This document shows positions 38 through 62,914 of a DNA stretch of 64,000 bases, one piece after another. Both the position numbers and the translations under genes were made by a program. The stretch spans positions 53,087 through 117,086 of the forward strand of contig DASYHJ010000003.1 of assembly GCA_035998725.1 (NCBI GenBank), given 5' to 3'. This DNA is from Pirellulaceae bacterium (GTDB lineage Bacteria; Planctomycetota; Planctomycetia; Pirellulales; Pirellulaceae). The notes under the pieces are model-generated. The model was not told the origin of the DNA and made no database searches. It saw only the letters and a list, made by a program, of their open reading frames with translations. Every line of letters begins with the position of its first letter. Positions within the stretch are counted from its first letter, which is position 1.

Positions 38-187
38 TGCACTGGGCGGGGCGTCTGCGCGCTGGGCGAGGCTCCCCACGCGCTGGGCGAGGCTCTCCAC
101 GCGCTGGGCGAGGGCCTCCTGACCCCGCCCCTGCTCGGGATTCACGCGCGCTGGGCGCGGGTCTCCTGACCCTGCCCTTGCCCGGGA
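38..187. repeat. Family-B tandem hairpin array (4 units) 3' of the WD40 gene
   Basis: GCGCTGGGCGAGG[C/G]TC[C/T]CC... repeated. The last two units are full hairpins GGGCG(C)GGGTCTCCTGACCCYGCCCYT. The track ORF 22-417 is just this repeat translated. Confidence 0.8.
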
Positions 188-4666: not shown

Positions 4667-6088
4667 TCAGGTCGTTTCCGCGACCAGGTCAGCGGAGAGC
4701 TCCGCGTGATCGAGCGCTTCGCGACAGTTCGCGAAGATCGATTCCACCTCCAGCGCCGTGTCCAGTTCCGCAGCCGCGAACGAAGCGGTGATGCGGAGCG
4801 GCACCCCGTCAACGCTGGCGAAGGGTCGAGCGAGTTCGCCGCGAATTCGGGCGACGACGGAATCGGCGTCGCCGGCCGTCGCTTCGGGAAGCAGCGCGGC
4901 GAACATGTCTCTTCCGTAGCGAGCGATGTGATCGGTATCGCGAACCGAGATGCGCAGCGCCTGGCTCACGAACAGCAGCGCCTGTTCCGCCGCGCGGAAG
5001 CCTCGCTTCGCGATCATCTCGTCGTAGCCGTCGATTCGCAGCAGCGTCAGCGTCGCCTGTCCTGGCGTGCGTCGGAGCTGAGCGAGCCGACGCTTCACGT
5101 CGGCGGTGAACGAGGCACGATTCGACAGGCCGGTCACGGGATCCAGACCCGCCACCTCCGCGGTCGAAGTCCGCTGCGCCCGTCGATCGAAGATGGGGGC
5201 GCCCCCGTCTTCGCGTTCGCTCCCGGCATCGGCGAGAGGCAGCATGCCGTCGCCGCGACGCCAGATACCGATGTTTCGACCTCGAGCCTTCGCGTCGTAG
5301 AGCCCCTCGTCGACGCGGCGAATCCATGAAGCGAGGTCTTCTCCGGGCAGCGCCTCCGCCAGGCCGGCGCTCGCCGTCACGCGCAGTCGCTTGTCGTCGA
5401 TCGCGGTCGAAGTCTCGCCGACGCGGGCGCGAATCGCCTCGGCGACGTCGCGCGACTCGGAGGCTGTTCGGTTCGGAAGCACGATCGCGAACTCCTCGCC
5501 GCCGTACCGAGCGACGAAGGCATCCTTCGGCGCGGCATCGGTCAGCGCCTTGGCGACGGCGCGGAGGACGGCGTCGCCCGCGAGGTGGCCATGGGCGTCG
5601 TTGACTCGCTTGAAGTGATCGACGTCCAACAGCACCAGGGAGGTCGGTTCGCTCCGCTCGTTCGCCGCGTCGAGCCGTTCGTCGAGGTAGTCATCCAGCG
5701 CGCCGCGGTTCCGCAGCAGCGTCAACGCATCGGTACGCGCCGCGATGGCTTGCTCGCGCATCATCCGGGCCTGCTCCTCAAGCCTCGCTTCTGCCTCGCG
5801 AAGTTTGCGACGCATGCAGTCGCTGGCTTCGACGATCTGTCGCACGCAGGCCGCGACGTCCGATTCGTCAGGGGCGGGAAGCGCTTCCAGATCCTCCGTC
5901 AGGATTCGCACCTGCGTTTCGTGCTCCTGCACGTCGCGAGACAGTTTCGTCGCGATCTCGTGCAGGACCGCGAGCGATTCGCGATCGAGGTTCGGTTGCG
6001 CGCCGGAACGGGGGAGCAGGCGTCCGCACAGGACGCCGCCGGCGAATAGGGCCGCAGCGGCGAGAAGCGATAGGATCAGGATCGACAT
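4667..6088 (-). CDS. Tandem GGDEF diguanylate cyclase (membrane anchor + coiled coil; first GGDEF degenerate, second intact)
   Basis: Motifs 'RYGRDMFAALLP' (degenerate) and 'RYGGEEFAIVLP' (canonical GGEEF). N-terminal TM helix MSILILSLLAAAALFAGGVL. Confidence 0.8.
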   Translation of the reverse strand: MSILILSLLAAAALFAGGVLCGRLLPRSGAQPNLDRESLAVLHEIATKLSRDVQEHETQVRILTEDLEALPAPDESDVAACVRQIVEASDCMRRKLREAEARLEEQARMMREQAIAARTDALTLLRNRGALDDYLDERLDAANERSEPTSLVLLDVDHFKRVNDAHGHLAGDAVLRAVAKALTDAAPKDAFVARYGGEEFAIVLPNRTASESRDVAEAIRARVGETSTAIDDKRLRVTASAGLAEALPGEDLASWIRRVDEGLYDAKARGRNIGIWRRGDGMLPLADAGSEREDGGAPIFDRRAQRTSTAEVAGLDPVTGLSNRASFTADVKRRLAQLRRTPGQATLTLLRIDGYDEMIAKRGFRAAEQALLFVSQALRISVRDTDHIARYGRDMFAALLPEATAGDADSVVARIRGELARPFASVDGVPLRITASFAAAELDTALEVESIFANCREALDHAELSADLVAETT

Positions 6089-18706: not shown

Positions 18707-18861
18707 TCTCAGGCTGCGATCCTGACATGGCGGATATTTTCCCGAGAAGAGTCGTAACGAATCGCGAGCCGTTCCGCTTCGACAGACAGAGACAGGAACG
18801 AGGCCTTCGAGGACGAAGGCCGCCTGTTCGAAATCCCTCTGCTGGAAAGCGAAACGATCCG

Positions 18862-19245
18862 ATGCTCGCCAACTTCAAGATTCTGACCTTCTCGCTCGTC
18901 GCCGCCTTCGCCCTGATCGCCTCGGCCAGCGCCTACGCCGGCAACGGTCATGGCGGTCACGGACACGGTCACGGTCACAACCATGGCGGTAACGGGCATG
19001 GCCACGGGCACGGGCACGGCCACGGCCACGGGCATGGTCACGGTCATGGACACGGCCATGGTCACAACCACGGCGGTCATGGGCACGGCCATCACCACCA
19101 CGGACATGGCCACTTCCATATCCAACCCTTCCCGTACCAGCAGTTCCCGCACTTTCACAACGGTCATTTTCACAACGGACACTTCCACAACGGCCACTTC
19201 CATGGCCGCAACGGGGGCGGCTTCCAGTTCCACTTCAGCAAGTAA
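18862..19245 (+). CDS. Secreted histidine/glycine-rich repeat protein (putative metal-binding)
   Basis: Signal peptide MLANFKILTFSLVAAFALIASASAYA, then a (HG)n run of about 35 dipeptides, HHHHGHGH, and four FHNGH repeats. The underlying DNA is a CACGGC-type microsatellite. Confidence 0.6.
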   Translation: MLANFKILTFSLVAAFALIASASAYAGNGHGGHGHGHGHNHGGNGHGHGHGHGHGHGHGHGHGHGHGHNHGGHGHGHHHHGHGHFHIQPFPYQQFPHFHNGHFHNGHFHNGHFHGRNGGGFQFHFSK

Positions 19246-30541: not shown

Positions 30542-30660
30542 AACGAAGAGGGGCGGGGTCGGGAGACTCGCATCCAGAGCAGATAGATGGAGGCCTGCGT
30601 CCCTCGCGGAGAGATATCGGCAACGGCTTTCGCAGCCGGCCCTTCAAGGAGGAGAATCGC

Positions 30661-49661: not shown

Positions 49662-49939
49662 CGAGCGGTTGGGCGCGGGGTCGGGAGATCCGCCACCCAG
49701 CGCAGGGGGCGGCGGAGATCTGCAGCGGCGTTGCGAACGGCTTGAAAAGAACTACGCTCGGTTTCCCCCTTTCAGGCGGCGGCGTAAACTTACTCGCGGC
49801 CCGCAGATTCTGCCGGGGATCGGCATCGGTCATGCTGCGAAAGCCGCGCGATAAGTCCGCGCGACAGTTCGCGGGTAGGAAGCGGGGCACGACGGCGATT
49901 CCGCCGCGTCCGTTCGAGAGGATTCGTTAAGGAATCGAG

Positions 49940-53364: not shown

Positions 53365-53722
53365 ATGGGCGTCCGGCGCCGCTCTCCGCGGACGCCGCCG
53401 GTGGACACTTCGGTTGGTCGGCCGGGCCCGCAAGAAATTTTTTCTCGCCGGCGGCTGACGCTCGCTGCGCTCGACGTTTCGCCTCCGTGCTGACCGATGC
53501 CACGTCGATCGCACGGCGCAACCGCTGACGGCGCGAGAGAGTTAGCGGCACGCTCGTTGGAGGCAAGTTTGCCGGAGGCGACCTGCTTTCCCGTCGCCGC
53601 TCGCTTCCCCGTCGCCCCCCTTCGTGAAGCTGCACGTCGCCGCGACAAGCGAACGTGCGTATCGTTTGATAGAACAGAACGAGAGCCCGCCGACGTCTGC
53701 CTCCTCGCCGCAAAGGGATTGG

Positions 53723-55072
53723 ACGATGGTCGAAACCGCATCCGGCTACGAGGAGTTCGACGAACCGGTCTCGTTCGAGTCGGGTCTCGACACGCTGTTG
53801 CTCGGGGCCCATCGCGAGAGCAATAAGGGCCTCGGCTTTCATTCCAAGGCCGCCGGTCGGACCGAAACCAGGGCCGCTCTCTACGACGGCGACGCCCATC
53901 TCTGCACCGTCGCGCCGACGCGTTCCGGCAAAGGGGTCGGCGTCATCGCGCCGAATCTCCTTACCTACCGCGGCCCCGTCGTCGTCTTCGATCCGAAGGG
54001 CGAGAACTACGAAATCACCGCGCGGCGGCGCCGGGAGATGGGGCATCAGGTCGTACGGCTCGACCCGTTCGGCGTCTGCGGCGAAGGGGGCGACTCCTTC
54101 AATCCGCTCGAACTGTTCCAACTCAAGGGGATCGACGTCGAGTGCGATTCGCAGTCGATGGCCTCGCTCCTCTCGCGCGGCATCACCGGGTCGAAGGAAC
54201 CCTTCTGGGACATCAACGGCAGCGGCCTCTCCGCCGGCCTGATCGCCTGCGCGCTGACGCAGGGAGACGAGACCAAGAAGAGCCTGAACTACGTGGTCGA
54301 CGCGCTGACGCGGGATGACGTCGTTTACAACCTCGCCGTCGTGCTCGACACGGTCGGGAAGGAGATCAGCAAGTACGCCCATCGCGAGATCGCCAGCATG
54401 CTCCAGATGCCGGACATCACGCGCGGCGGCGTCCTGGCGACGGCGCAGACCTACTTCAAGCCGTTCATGTCCGACCTGATCGGACGGACGCTGGGCGAGT
54501 CGAGCTTCTCGCTGCAGGACTTCGCCGACGGCAAGCCGATCTCGATTTATCTCGTGCTCCCCCCCAGCCGGCTGCACAGCCATCGCGGGCTGCTCAAGCT
54601 CTGGATGGGAACGCTCCTCGCCGCGATCCTGACGCGGAAGCGGATCCCGCGCCTCCGCACGCTCTTCCTGATCGACGAGGCGGCGCAGCTCGAAAGCTTT
54701 CCGCTGCTCGAGCCGATGATCACCCTCGCGGCAGGCTACGGCGTCTGGGTCCACACCTTCTGGCAGGACCTGTCGCAGCTCAAAACCTGCTATCCGGAAT
54801 CGTGGAAGACCATCCTGAACAACTGCGGCGTGATCCAGACGTTCGGCATCTACAACCGTGACATGGCCGTGCAGTGGGGCGAGTACTTCGACGCCGGCCC
54901 GGCGGAACTTCGCAGCCTGACGCCGGAAGAACAGATCATCGCCATTCACGGACGCGGCGAACTCCGCTGCCGGCGGCTGAACTATCTCACCGACCGCCGC
55001 TTCTCCGGCATGTTCGACAAGAACAGCTTCTACGCGAACCGCCCGACGCCCGGCCAGCCGATGGGGAAGTAA
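53723..55072 (+). CDS. Type IV coupling-protein-like ATPase (TraG/TraD/VirD4 family), soluble, orphan
   Basis: 'APTRSGKGVGVIAPNLL' Walker A, 'VVFDPKGE', C-terminal all-alpha domain. No N-terminal TM helices. The start is uncertain; an alternative TTG/ATG lies at 53624. Confidence 0.55.
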   Translation, partial: TMVETASGYEEFDEPVSFESGLDTLLLGAHRESNKGLGFHSKAAGRTETRAALYDGDAHLCTVAPTRSGKGVGVIAPNLLTYRGPVVVFDPKGENYEITARRRREMGHQVVRLDPFGVCGEGGDSFNPLELFQLKGIDVECDSQSMASLLSRGITGSKEPFWDINGSGLSAGLIACALTQGDETKKSLNYVVDALTRDDVVYNLAVVLDTVGKEISKYAHREIASMLQMPDITRGGVLATAQTYFKPFMSDLIGRTLGESSFSLQDFADGKPISIYLVLPPSRLHSHRGLLKLWMGTLLAAILTRKRIPRLRTLFLIDEAAQLESFPLLEPMITLAAGYGVWVHTFWQDLSQLKTCYPESWKTILNNCGVIQTFGIYNRDMAVQWGEYFDAGPAELRSLTPEEQIIAIHGRGELRCRRLNYLTDRRFSGMFDKNSFYANRPTPGQPMGK

Positions 55073-55100
55073 TCGGAGGCTCGTCCTTCCCCCTACATTT

Positions 55101-55137
55101 GCGCTGGGCGAGGGTCTCCTGATCCCGCCCGTTTTCG
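55101..55137 (+). terminator. Family-B hairpin followed by T-tract (intrinsic terminator)
   Basis: GCGCTGGGCGAGGGTCTCCTGATCCCGCCCGTTTTCGG, 29 nt after the T4CP stop. Confidence 0.6.
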
Positions 55138-55149
55138 GACCGCGGCTGG

Positions 55150-55347
55150 TCAGGGAGGATCGATCCCGAGCAGCTTGAGAAGGAAAACGAGAATCGCGAG
55201 CAGCGGAAGACCGACCGCCGCCCAGACGATCGGCAGCCGCCGCCCGCAGTTAGGGCAGCGCAGCAGCCTCGTCCGAAAGTACGTGCCGCAGCCCTTGCAG
55301 TAACTCGTCATTTCGCCTCTCCCTTCGCGGCAGAATTCTATCGCCAT
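55150..55347 (-). CDS. Small zinc-ribbon membrane protein (65 aa)
   Basis: CKGC...CPNC zinc ribbon plus a C-terminal TM helix. Acceptable codon usage. Unverified. Confidence 0.35.
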   Translation of the reverse strand: MAIEFCREGRGEMTSYCKGCGTYFRTRLLRCPNCGRRLPIVWAAVGLPLLAILVFLLKLLGIDPP

Positions 55348-57606: not shown

Positions 57607-57683
57607 GCTCGGTTAGCTCAACTGGTTAGAGCGCCAGATGAAGACTCTGGTTGTTGCGGGTTCGATTCCCGTACCGACGACCC
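57607..57683 (+). tRNA. tRNA-like sequence with irregular acceptor stem and anticodon loop (possibly Phe-GAA-like pseudo-tRNA)
   Basis: Canonical D-arm TAGCTCAACTGGTTAGAGC and T-arm GCGGGTTCGATTCCCGT. The acceptor halves GCTCGGT/ACCGACG mispair at positions 1-2. The anticodon loop TGAAGAC has G at position 33. Confidence 0.35.
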
Positions 57684-59501: not shown

Positions 59502-59622
59502 GGGGCGCTGGGGCGCGGGTCTCCTGACCCCGCCCCTTCTCGAATCCCCTCCGCGCGGGGCGCAGGTCTCCTGACCTCGCCCCTCAGTGGCAGGCGCGTG
59601 CGGGTCTCCTGACCCGCCCCTC
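59502..59622. repeat. Family-B tandem hairpin array (3 units of GGGCGCGGGTCTCCTGACCCCGCCCCT)
   Basis: Units at 59502-59537, 59551-59584, and 59590-59622. The same unit occurs at 38-187 (4 units) and 55101-55131. Confidence 0.8.
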
Positions 59623-59656
59623 TTCGCCTCGGCAAAGCTCAGCTACCGCCCCGAAT

Positions 59657-59845
59657 TCAGGAGCGCTCCTCGGCCGTTCCGGCCTTCGCTTCGGCGGCCG
59701 CCAGGCACCTCTCGCAGTACCAGGGCGCCGGCGTGATCACCGGCTGCGGGCTTCGCTTGCGGCACTTCGCGCACAGGTAACGCTTGCCTCGAACGGCCGT
59801 TCGAGGGCGAAGTCGTCGTCCGGAAGTATCGCTTTTCTCGCCCAT
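59657..59845 (-). CDS. Small zinc-ribbon protein (62 aa), tentative
   Basis: CAKC...CERC motif. Lies 19 nt downstream of the PQQ propeller gene. Confidence 0.3.
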   Translation of the reverse strand: MGEKSDTSGRRLRPRTAVRGKRYLCAKCRKRSPQPVITPAPWYCERCLAAAEAKAGTAEERS

Positions 59846-61840: not shown

Positions 61841-61862
61841 AGAGAGAGAGAGAGAGAGAGAG
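61841..61862. repeat. (AG)11 dinucleotide microsatellite
   Basis: agagagagagagagagagagag, in the intergenic region 195 bp upstream of the MauE-DUF1573 gene. Confidence 0.9.
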
Positions 61863-62056: not shown

Positions 62057-62914
62057 ATGCGTCGCGTCGCTCTTGTCTGCATAGGTCTGGTTCTTCTCGC
62101 TGCCGGGATCGCGAAGATCGCGGCGCTCTCCGGCCCGGTCGATACGCTGGGCTGGCCCCGCGAGATGATCGTCGCGGGCTCGGCGGTCGAACTGCTGCTC
62201 GGCGCCTGGCTTCTCTCAGGCGCGGCGATTCGCCTGGCCCATCTGGCCGCGATCGGCATCTTCCTGCTCTTCGCCCTGCTGTCGGCGTATCAGGTCATCC
62301 GCGGCGTCCCAAGTTGCGGTTGTCTCGGCAAGCTCTACGTCCATCCGGCGTGGATGCTGACCTTCGATCTCGTCACTCTCGCGACGCTGACCGGTCTCTG
62401 GTTCTTCGATCGGCGAGAGAGAAGCCCCGCCGATACGAAGAACGCTGCCCCCACCGATCGGGGCGTCCGCTCCTACCTCGCTTACGGCTCGGCCTTCGTG
62501 TCCGTCGCCGCCGTCGGCTTGTTCGTCGCCGGCTGGACCTTCGCAGGATCGCTCGGCGGCGCGGTCGCTGTGGCGGGTGGAAGCGAACTCGTCGTTTCCC
62601 CCGCAGTCGTCGATTTGGGTAGCGGTACGGTCGGCGAAACCAAGCAGGCGGCTGTTCGTCTGGTCAACGCCTCGACGTCCCCGGTGCGCATCGTCGGCGG
62701 GAAGAACAGCTGCGGCTGCATGGTGACCAGCGAACTCCCCGTCACGATCCCCGCCCGAGGCAGCGCCGCGTTTCCGATCGAAGTGACGATCACGAGCGAA
62801 GGTTACCGCGAGGTGTTCTTCACGCTCTACACCGATCACGATCAGGCCCGCAGCGTCGCAGGCCGCGTGAGGATGCGAGGGGCGGCACCCCTCGCGGTCG
62901 CTTCGGATCGCTAG
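62057..62914 (+). CDS. MauE/DoxX-like membrane protein fused to C-terminal DUF1573-like domain
   Basis: Four TM helices with 'SCGCLGKL' (MauE family motif). C-terminal 'VVSPAVVDLGSGTVGETKQAAVRLVNASTSPVRIVGGKNSCGCMV' beta-sandwich. Confidence 0.6.
   Translation: MRRVALVCIGLVLLAAGIAKIAALSGPVDTLGWPREMIVAGSAVELLLGAWLLSGAAIRLAHLAAIGIFLLFALLSAYQVIRGVPSCGCLGKLYVHPAWMLTFDLVTLATLTGLWFFDRRERSPADTKNAAPTDRGVRSYLAYGSAFVSVAAVGLFVAGWTFAGSLGGAVAVAGGSELVVSPAVVDLGSGTVGETKQAAVRLVNASTSPVRIVGGKNSCGCMVTSELPVTIPARGSAAFPIEVTITSEGYREVFFTLYTDHDQARSVAGRVRMRGAAPLAVASDR

Follow-up and report, generated by a model that had tools for sequence, protein, structure and literature searches.

The GC-rich hairpins scattered over a 64,000-nucleotide stretch of a Pirellulaceae genome (GenBank assembly GCA_035998725.1, contig DASYHJ010000003.1, positions 53,087 to 117,086; hereafter the window, meaning the whole stretch analysed) are probably copies and fragments of a dispersed, non-autonomous family of palindromic elements of the class Planctomycetia. 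The family resembles repetitive extragenic palindromes (REPs) and bacterial interspersed mosaic elements (BIMEs) and, where it lies inside genes, the Rickettsia palindromic elements (RPEs). It is present in multiple copies, is common to many genomes and to phages, can be present or absent at homologous sites, and tolerates in-frame insertion. A first-pass annotation of the window had described tandem hairpin arrays at three gene ends. The repeat is indeed present at those three loci and exceeds chance expectation, while the unit count, the fold and the list of copies needed correction, and the larger element to which the hairpins belong, common to planctomycete orders and phages, had been overlooked. 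Among the three functions proposed at that time, namely bidirectional terminators, RNase-protective 3' structures and REP-type sites, the last fits best, as the hairpins belong to a dispersed, multi-copy, insertion-polymorphic palindromic family. Literature searches on the DNA core, on the encoded peptides, and on REPs, miniature inverted-repeat transposable elements (MITEs), paired REP elements (REPINs) and REP-associated tyrosine transposases (RAYTs) in planctomycetes returned no account of this element, and the family is apparently undescribed.

A conserved hairpin unit in planctomycete genomes and phages

The repeating unit is 25 nt long, reads GGGCG(N)GGGTC-TCCT-GACCCCGCCC, and is preceded on its 5' side by a GCGCT or GTT tag. 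Its fold has a stem of 10 bp, interrupted by a single bulged nucleotide and closed by the 4-nt loop TCCT, and is not the 9-bp stem with an 8-nt loop first described, and intact units of the window reach -18 to -25 kcal/mol and are stable on both strands. A covariance model built from 67 distinct unit copies and run unfiltered over the whole window returned eight credible units with noise below them, the best scoring 41-49 bits at E-values of 1e-7 to 1e-8. Position counts across the family show that the G-Y-T tag is conserved and the loop TCTCC almost invariant, with the bulge and the fourth loop base as the variable positions.

Compensatory changes have kept the local hairpin. In the family alignment, 95% of cells are paired on the named structure, and compensatory changes occur at three stem pairs: 1-25 (GC:CG = 35:16), 2-24 (GC/UA) and 7-20 (GC/AU/CG). 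Double-change cells number 22 against 7.6 in shuffled alignments, with none of 500 shuffles equalling the observed count, and pairing on control structures slid along the alignment drops to 37-55% in every case.

Imperfect palindromes are plentiful in GC-rich genomes, and the window, from a genome of 66% GC, holds 86 short inverted repeats, so the pattern might be imagined to be an artefact of chance or composition. This explanation is refuted, and we give it practically no credence. The core GGGTCTCCTGACCC is found nine times in the window at up to 2 mismatches against 0.69 expected, a count reached in 0 of 100 shuffles; the covariance model gives E-values down to 1e-8; and identical 25-mers recur in dozens of other genomes, while shuffled copies of the loci yield zero unit matches. 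The unit does not correspond to a catalogued RNA: only a tRNA passes the gathering thresholds when the whole window is compared with Rfam, and no family comes near threshold for loci 1 and 3 (the first and third of the originally described arrays) at a permissive E-value.

The distribution of the unit points to Planctomycetia. When species-representative genomes were searched for the 25-mer, two positions being left free, exact matches came from at least 98 stretches. These belong to at least 32 assemblies, of which 28 bear the label Planctomycetota, all of class Planctomycetia, under the names Isosphaeraceae/Isosphaerales, Pirellulaceae/Pirellulales and Planctomycetaceae/Planctomycetales. The other four assemblies are labelled Kuenenia, Verrucomicrobiota, Acidobacteria and Chloroflexus (L014, L042, L066, L084; L numbers are our labels for loci). 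The Kuenenia-labelled contig is probably mis-binned because its GC content is 61%, and the Acidobacteria match is probably due to chance because a stem pair is broken and the match lies inside a gene. Family-level labels are themselves unreliable, since a "Pirellulaceae" locus and a "Planctomycetaceae" locus reach 87% protein identity. At least two lineages are nevertheless anchored by named relatives: Anatilimnocola, through a U32 peptidase gene that hosts a copy, and Planctomicrobium and Rubinisphaera, at about 63% identity to the slipin of the window. With up to 4 mismatches allowed, the collected loci contain 197 units in 148 arrays. The window has about 1 site for every 13 kb, and the other loci have about 1 extra site for every 66 kb.

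Units also occur in phages. Four IMG/VR contigs carry them, and three of these encode phage hallmark proteins, including a lambda-type portal, gpA terminase, capsid, ERF and a DnaB-like helicase; the only Pfam match on the fourth (L108) is Laminin_G_3. The phage-contig units lie in the linker of an S49-capsid fusion, in the C-terminal part of an ERF protein, and in a Pro-rich 1207-aa open reading frame (ORF) of L108. No unit match was found among PLSDB plasmids or GenBank phages, and a protein-database search with an element-encoded peptide returned no candidates, a result that reflects a limitation of the word index.

Full elements and insertions inside genes

Arrays contain 1-8 units, mostly at periods of 33-48 nt (148 arrays, up to 4 mismatches), and in 101 of the 148 the last unit is succeeded by a second module, GACCGNAGGTCTCC, at a distance that is nearly always 7-8 nt. 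In other genomes, 28 inverted pairs form palindromic elements of 80-184 bp, built in the order tag, unit or units, spacer, inner module, variable centre, inner module, spacer, unit or units, tag. These full elements have terminal inverted repeats of about 50 bp that end in GTT...AAC or GCGCT...AGCGC.

Such ends might suggest that the units are remnants of MITEs, whose terminal inverted repeats would be read as double-stranded DNA by a DDE transposase. We consider this highly improbable. None of the 28 full elements has a target-site duplication, and an all-against-all BLASTN comparison of the loci revealed no long insertion sequence (IS)-like repeat that shares the element ends. Moreover, left arms of the form CGGCG...CGCCG are paired with right arms of the form GGGCG...CGCCC in the same elements, and compensatory changes keep the hairpin of one arm even where the complementarity between left and right is broken. 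That the one-arm hairpin is preserved, and not the pairing between the arms, points to a folded single strand. Two other classes of repeat were considered and rejected. A CRISPR array does not fit, as periods of 33-48 nt leave spacers of 8-20 nt that are often identical within an array, and the Rfam CRISPR-DR models score far below their thresholds. An integron attC site is an imperfect palindrome with R'' (RYYYAAC) at its 5' end and R' (GTTRRRY) at its 3' end; element ends of the form GTTGGGC...GCCCAAC fit these core motifs, but in reverse order, and neither cassette arrays nor an integrase were seen in the window and loci.

The family also includes degenerate and mosaic copies, and other hairpin modules join the unit in some genomes. 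Arrays with identical internal spacers, which speak for expansion in place, occur in L008, L016 and L002. Truncated 5' half-units that end at TCTCC form tandem tracts of 21-22-nt repeats in at least four other genomes (L040, L053, L011, L078), which makes the similar tract at window positions 59-100 a trait of the family. In L040, such half-units (about 995-1060, residues about 228-250) are translated in frame as GGDPRPT three times over, in a protein from Isosphaeraceae that has a homologue in L088, an FGE-sulfatase-domain protein. One Isosphaeraceae metagenome-assembled genome (L054, L055, L062, L073, L094) contains a 147-nt mosaic repeat at no fewer than six sites, in tandem in L062, which combines a unit, the perfect palindrome ATCGACAAC-TT-GTTGTCGAT and three further small hairpins. 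A module of the form GTCAATC-N3-GATTGAC lies directly 5' of units in L001, L008, L030, L074, L083 and L091; a motif that contains TAG stands before it (TAGTGG in L001 and L091), and in L074 and L091 a second copy stands on the other side of the unit. In L002, positions 5126-5986 comprise a left arm, a 640-nt stretch with a 95-aa lipoprotein-like ORF that has no Pfam match, and a right arm, after which come five tandem minus-strand units at a period of 40. This arrangement is either a cargo-carrying element or two half-elements that flank a gene, and it was the only case found when the loci were searched for genes bracketed by inverted units.

The family is strongly enriched between genes, albeit not confined there: by gene calls, 42 of 146 arrays (about 29%) lie inside ORFs. 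Within well-scoring genes, sense copies are read as GRGSPDPA (n = 17) or LGAGLLTPP (n = 7), the TGA-containing frame is never used, and 10 of the 12 antisense copies yield AGSGDPRPT.

Comparisons of homologues reveal insertion polymorphism at two of these sites. The U32 peptidases of L005 and L006 contain an in-frame 32-aa insert that is absent from five homologues 87-91% identical to them and from two Anatilimnocola species, and in L052 the U32 site is empty while a unit is present elsewhere in the genome. Of two BlaR1-M56 homologues, one has a 31-aa insert of two units that the other lacks. Outside genes, the unit that stands behind the slipin gene of the window has no counterpart there in relatives whose slipins are 65-66% identical. 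Two FGE-sulfatase-domain homologues with 49% protein identity have the element at the same site, and their units are identical at the DNA level, whereas the spacers and centre are unrelated.

Units of the window and their genes

The window contains units at five loci, two of them (minus-strand copies at 30547-30581 and 49667-49704) missed by the first-pass annotation, which had listed three. Locus 1, previously counted as four hairpin units at 38-187, consists of two full hairpins and three truncated half-units, all on the plus strand. The first half-unit (39-58, GCACTGGGCGGGGCGTCTGC) is degenerate, matching the tag and 5' arm with 2 mismatches and ending without a 3' arm. The next two (59-100, subdivided as 59-79 and 80-100), which read GCGCTGGGCGAGGCTC[C/T]CCAC, are cut right after TCTCC and form, with the start of the following unit, a 21-nt tandem repeat that Tandem Repeats Finder reports at 58-113 (period 21, 2.7 copies, 97% matches); the half-unit tract folds no better than shuffled sequence (z = +0.9). 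Of the full units, that at 101-131 (covariance match 100-134, 46.0 bits, E = 3.9e-8) has a GCGCT tag and a hairpin with a single T-to-C change in the stem, folding at -17.8 kcal/mol (plus strand) or -22.5 kcal/mol (minus strand), and that at 148-178 (match 147-181, 48.7 bits, E = 9.5e-9) folds at -21.1 kcal/mol (z = -2.8).

The two minus-strand copies are solo units. The degenerate one at 30547-30581 (21.4 bits, E = 0.014) has lost good folding (-6.1 kcal/mol, z = +0.2), and the one at 49667-49704, with an AGCGC tag (23.7 bits, E = 0.004), folds at -18.4 kcal/mol. At locus 2, a plus-strand solo unit (55100-55134, 42.7 bits, E = 2.2e-7, -18.7 kcal/mol) is followed by TTTT, and an identical copy is found in a second assembly (L099). 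Seven nucleotides after it, positions 55138-55151 on the same strand read GACCGCGGCTGGTC. Judged by its likeness to the consensus GACCGNAGGTCTCC, this may tentatively be taken as a relic of the inner module: its spacing fits the 7-8 nt of the family, but it fails a 2-mismatch search.

Locus 3 had been assigned three units, two of which are strong. All lie on the plus strand: one with an extra G in its tag at 59504-59539 (43.6 bits, -24.9 kcal/mol), one at 59552-59586 (41.3 bits, -22.3 kcal/mol, z = -3.7) with a compensatory A-T pair (AGGTC...GACCT), and a weak one at 59590-59624 (19.5 bits, E = 0.037, -15.9 kcal/mol, z = -1.1) whose 5' arm is shortened by a deletion. The proposal that copy number changes by slippage or expansion finds its support at the 21-nt half-unit tract of locus 1, and tracts of this kind recur in other genomes. 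In a relative with an 88%-identical flanking protein, by coordinates only, the gap downstream of the slipin gene measures 69 nt against 170 nt here. The arrays also break assemblies, as three short-read contigs stop inside them. Two, L099 (at window position 59581) and L104 (at about 102), have the same sequence as the window; the third, L100, belongs to a close relative.

All eight units of the window are intergenic. With genes called by a codon-usage score trained on the analysed sequences and flanking genes named with Pfam, locus 1 is flanked by a WD40 gene on the minus strand (200-1207) and by a convergent BrkB-like gene that ends at window base 13 and was read on an identical JGI contig reaching beyond the window start. 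Locus 2 begins 28 nt after the stop codon of a TraG/VirD4-type gene, and locus 3 begins 18 nt after that of a slipin (SPFH) gene. The unit at 30547-30581 follows the stop codon of prfA by 6 nt and precedes prmC by 80 nt. That at 49667-49704 likewise follows a stop codon by 6 nt, in this case of a 158-aa ORF, and stands 235 nt upstream of ftsH. A sixth locus, just beyond the window, begins 3 nt after a stop codon between convergent genes. The claim that the arrays sit at gene 3' ends thus proved stronger than first stated: the 30 nt that follow stop codons account for only 11.9% of intergenic bases, yet each of the five window loci begins there, at distances of 6-28 nt (p ~2e-5). Their convergent setting was borne out for loci 1 and 3, the latter with any choice of downstream gene, and holds for locus 2 only if a downstream 65-aa zinc-ribbon ORF, whose coding score is weak, is real. 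Arrays occupy 3 of the 7 convergent, 2 of the 27 co-directional and none of the 8 divergent intergenic regions of the window. Relative to the upstream gene, the orientation is sense in three cases and antisense in three. Across the family, the bias to gene 3' ends is mild (30 vs 19).

This placement would suit dedicated transcription terminators, bidirectional at convergent ends and acting through a GC hairpin that needs no U-tract, and so would the stability of the hairpins on both strands, at -18 to -25 kcal/mol. We nonetheless consider such a role decidedly unlikely. As first noted, a T-run (TTTT) follows the unit of locus 2 alone, so that seven of the eight units have none; a terminator scan calls none of the units and finds no terminator-like site at loci 2 or 3; and a copy separates prfA from prmC, two genes that are normally transcribed together. 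Furthermore, hairpin termination inside ORFs would be harmful, and thus the 42 arrays found there, many in conserved genes with the frame running through, speak against it. The half-unit tract cannot fold, and the invariant loop and tag would be superfluous for a generic terminator stem. A protective effect on RNA is plausible as a secondary one: transcribed units may well act as 3' stem-loops that slow exonucleases, which would be a side effect and not the family's raison d'etre. In Escherichia coli, transcribed REPs form 3' stem-loops that stabilise mRNAs.

Several other features of the window lie near these loci or stand apart from them. Two minus-strand ORFs of 65 and 62 aa with CxxC...CxxC zinc ribbons (55150-55347 and 59657-59845) face the arrays of loci 2 and 3; both were called by the source pipelines, yet have weak coding scores, and the length of the 62-aa ORF is kept in the relative with the 88%-identical flanking protein. 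The TraG/VirD4-type gene (53624-55072) encodes a lone type IV coupling protein, and a tRNA gene (57607-57680) lies 2.5 kb downstream of it, between loci 2 and 3. A plus-strand ORF of 172 aa (18727-19245) begins with a hydrophobic, signal-like stretch and contains about 25 His-Gly dipeptides (HGHGHG...), for which tandem repeats of 6, 18 and 27 nt (18954-19199) code; it may be a metal-binding secreted protein. Finally, a perfect (AG)11 microsatellite (61841-61862) is intergenic, upstream of a gene that starts at 62057.

Spread of the family and comparison with known systems

If the hairpins are REP/BIME-like elements, as we favour, they would spread as a single-stranded DNA hairpin read by a sequence-specific enzyme acting in trans, and the invariance of loop and tag points to such a protein reader. 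Arrays and half-unit tracts would then grow in place, by slippage or by template switching at the hairpin loop. In the genome from which the window comes, the outer module probably survives alone, as solo units and in tandem runs, and these may persist where insertion does least harm, just behind stop codons. We also surveyed the neighbours of sampled copies for a mobiliser. Clustering of 542 predicted neighbouring proteins returned only ordinary planctomycete families (kinases, PSD1/PSCyt, DUF1501) and no recurrent partner.

A number of observations weigh against this view of the hairpins. A six-frame scan for the HuH...Y motif over about 0.8 Mb around sampled copies found no match, although it covered about 8 kb per copy, a range in which a single-copy gene is easily missed. 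Target-site duplications are lacking, and insertion boundaries could not be placed exactly, at the U32 site because the linker is too diverged. The window has neither an inverted pair nor an intact inner module, only solo and direct tandem units, and mobility is therefore shown for the family and not for the window copies. The near-invariance of the sequence across orders is unusual for REP families. A relative whose slipin is 89% identical at the protein level has the same downstream unit, including the extra G and identical at 28 of 28 nt, beside an 18-19-nt spacer that has diverged to roughly half identity. That an orthologous unit is kept perfectly while its spacer changes, and that units stand so tightly behind stop codons in this genome (p ~2e-5), hints that more than mere tolerance, either selection or targeting, is at work.

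These last observations raise the alternative that the unit is a selected recognition site of a conserved host factor, spread by benefit to the host rather than by selfish transposition; a tag like a DNA uptake signal, a nucleoid or topoisomerase site, and the site of an RNA-binding protein are candidates. Beyond the slipin unit, this alternative could account for a 25-mer, a TCTCC loop and a G-Y-T tag that are near-invariant across three labelled orders while spacers and centres vary freely, for the DNA-identical units in FGE-sulfatase-domain homologues with 49% protein identity, and for the skewed frame use inside ORFs, which is also seen for uptake sequences. However, the density of sites given above is low, truncated, degenerate and mosaic copies are typical of decaying repeats, no candidate reader was found, and equal conservation could arise from a conserved transposase combined with gene conversion between copies. 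We thus regard a host-factor site as unlikely. A further reading, which we hold to be rather unlikely, sees in the unit more than selfish DNA: a modular hairpin signal of invariant sequence throughout Planctomycetia, maintained by a conserved reader acting in trans, carried between lineages by phages and co-opted both for gene 3' ends (within about 30 nt of stop codons) and for short Gly/Ser/Pro/Asp-rich linkers of host and phage proteins, such as GRGSPDPA and AGSGDPRPT.

These findings matter because planctomycetes are poorly served by current knowledge of repeats and mobile elements. The family inflates predicted proteins with repeat-encoded peptides and could mislead the prediction of terminators or small RNAs. 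Its constancy across orders, its occurrence in phages and its clear-cut insertion polymorphisms inside conserved genes set it apart, and make it a tractable system in which to ask how REP-like elements spread, what reads them, and how selfish DNA inserted in frame becomes a linker, questions for which Proteobacteria and Rickettsia have until now been the main subjects of study.

Our findings also fit into a wider set of known palindromic repeats. Like REPs, BIMEs and REPINs, the planctomycete units are imperfect palindromes of 20-40 nt with an unpaired 5' tag that occur in many copies, behind stop codons and inside operons, form inverted pairs and mosaics, leave no target duplication, and keep their hairpin by compensatory changes. 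The tag differs, being G-[T/C]-T, often GCGCT, where that of REPs is GT[AG]G or CGTC; the planctomycete element has a second fixed module, GACCGNAGGTCTCC, and about 29% of its arrays lie inside ORFs; and its near-invariance from order to order contrasts with REPs, which as a rule are confined to one species or genus. Nor did the scan of about 0.8 Mb around sampled copies reveal a RAYT gene. With neither the REP tag nor a RAYT, we do not file the family with the REPIN-RAYT systems.

A further parallel is offered by the hairpins that flank class-3 TnpA-Y1 (HuH) transposase genes in Planctomycetes, Acidobacteria and Legionella, which are atypical and REP-like (PMC6006769). They reach high copy number, are conserved in sequence across distant taxa, and contain a CnGA motif, with CCGAGCCGCGACCGTAAGGGAGCGGA and, in Planctomyces limnophilus, ACGAGCCGGAAGCGTCAGCGACGGGC as published examples (PMC6006769). 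A C[T/C/A]GA motif is also present in the loop of the planctomycete unit. The published sequences (C-n-G-A plus GCCGCGACCGT.AGGGAGCGG) are nonetheless unlike the unit, which led us to reject this identification and adds to the points against a REP-like reading, and the motif scan found no class-3 Y1 gene beside the sampled copies.

Inside genes, the family behaves much as RPEs do. These too are palindromic elements of about 100-150 bp that lie in frame, in surface or linker regions, encode hydrophilic peptides, and occur in some close homologues but not in others, as do the 32-aa U32 and 31-aa BlaR1-M56 inserts here. The host phylum, Planctomycetota, sets the present family apart, as do its modular build with tandem outer hairpins, its copies in phage genomes, and the intergenic position of most copies; the likeness is one of kind, and we claim no membership of RPE-1 to RPE-8. 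The BOX elements of Streptococcus pneumoniae (boxA-boxBn-boxC) are likewise modular and intergenic, with one tandemly variable module, stable stem-loops and no known transposase, but they are unrelated in sequence, and the planctomycete element is symmetrical around its centre and built of individually palindromic units.

The DNA uptake sequences of Neisseria (DUS) and uptake signal sequences of Haemophilus (USS) share with the unit a taxon-wide conservation, inverted pairs behind genes and preferred frames in ORFs. They measure 10-12 nt and occur about once per kb, compared with 25 nt plus tag and about 1 per 13-66 kb for the planctomycete unit. Intrinsic terminators, finally, are also GC-rich stem-loops just past a stop codon, as at 55100-55134 with its TTTT, yet the other units have no T-tract, the conservation is of sequence and not just of shape, and copies occur in ORFs and operons. 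Each trait of the family is thus known singly: the tagged hairpin, doublets and mosaics from REPs, BIMEs and REPINs, in-frame insertion from RPEs, the tandem module from BOX, and constancy with frame bias from uptake sequences.

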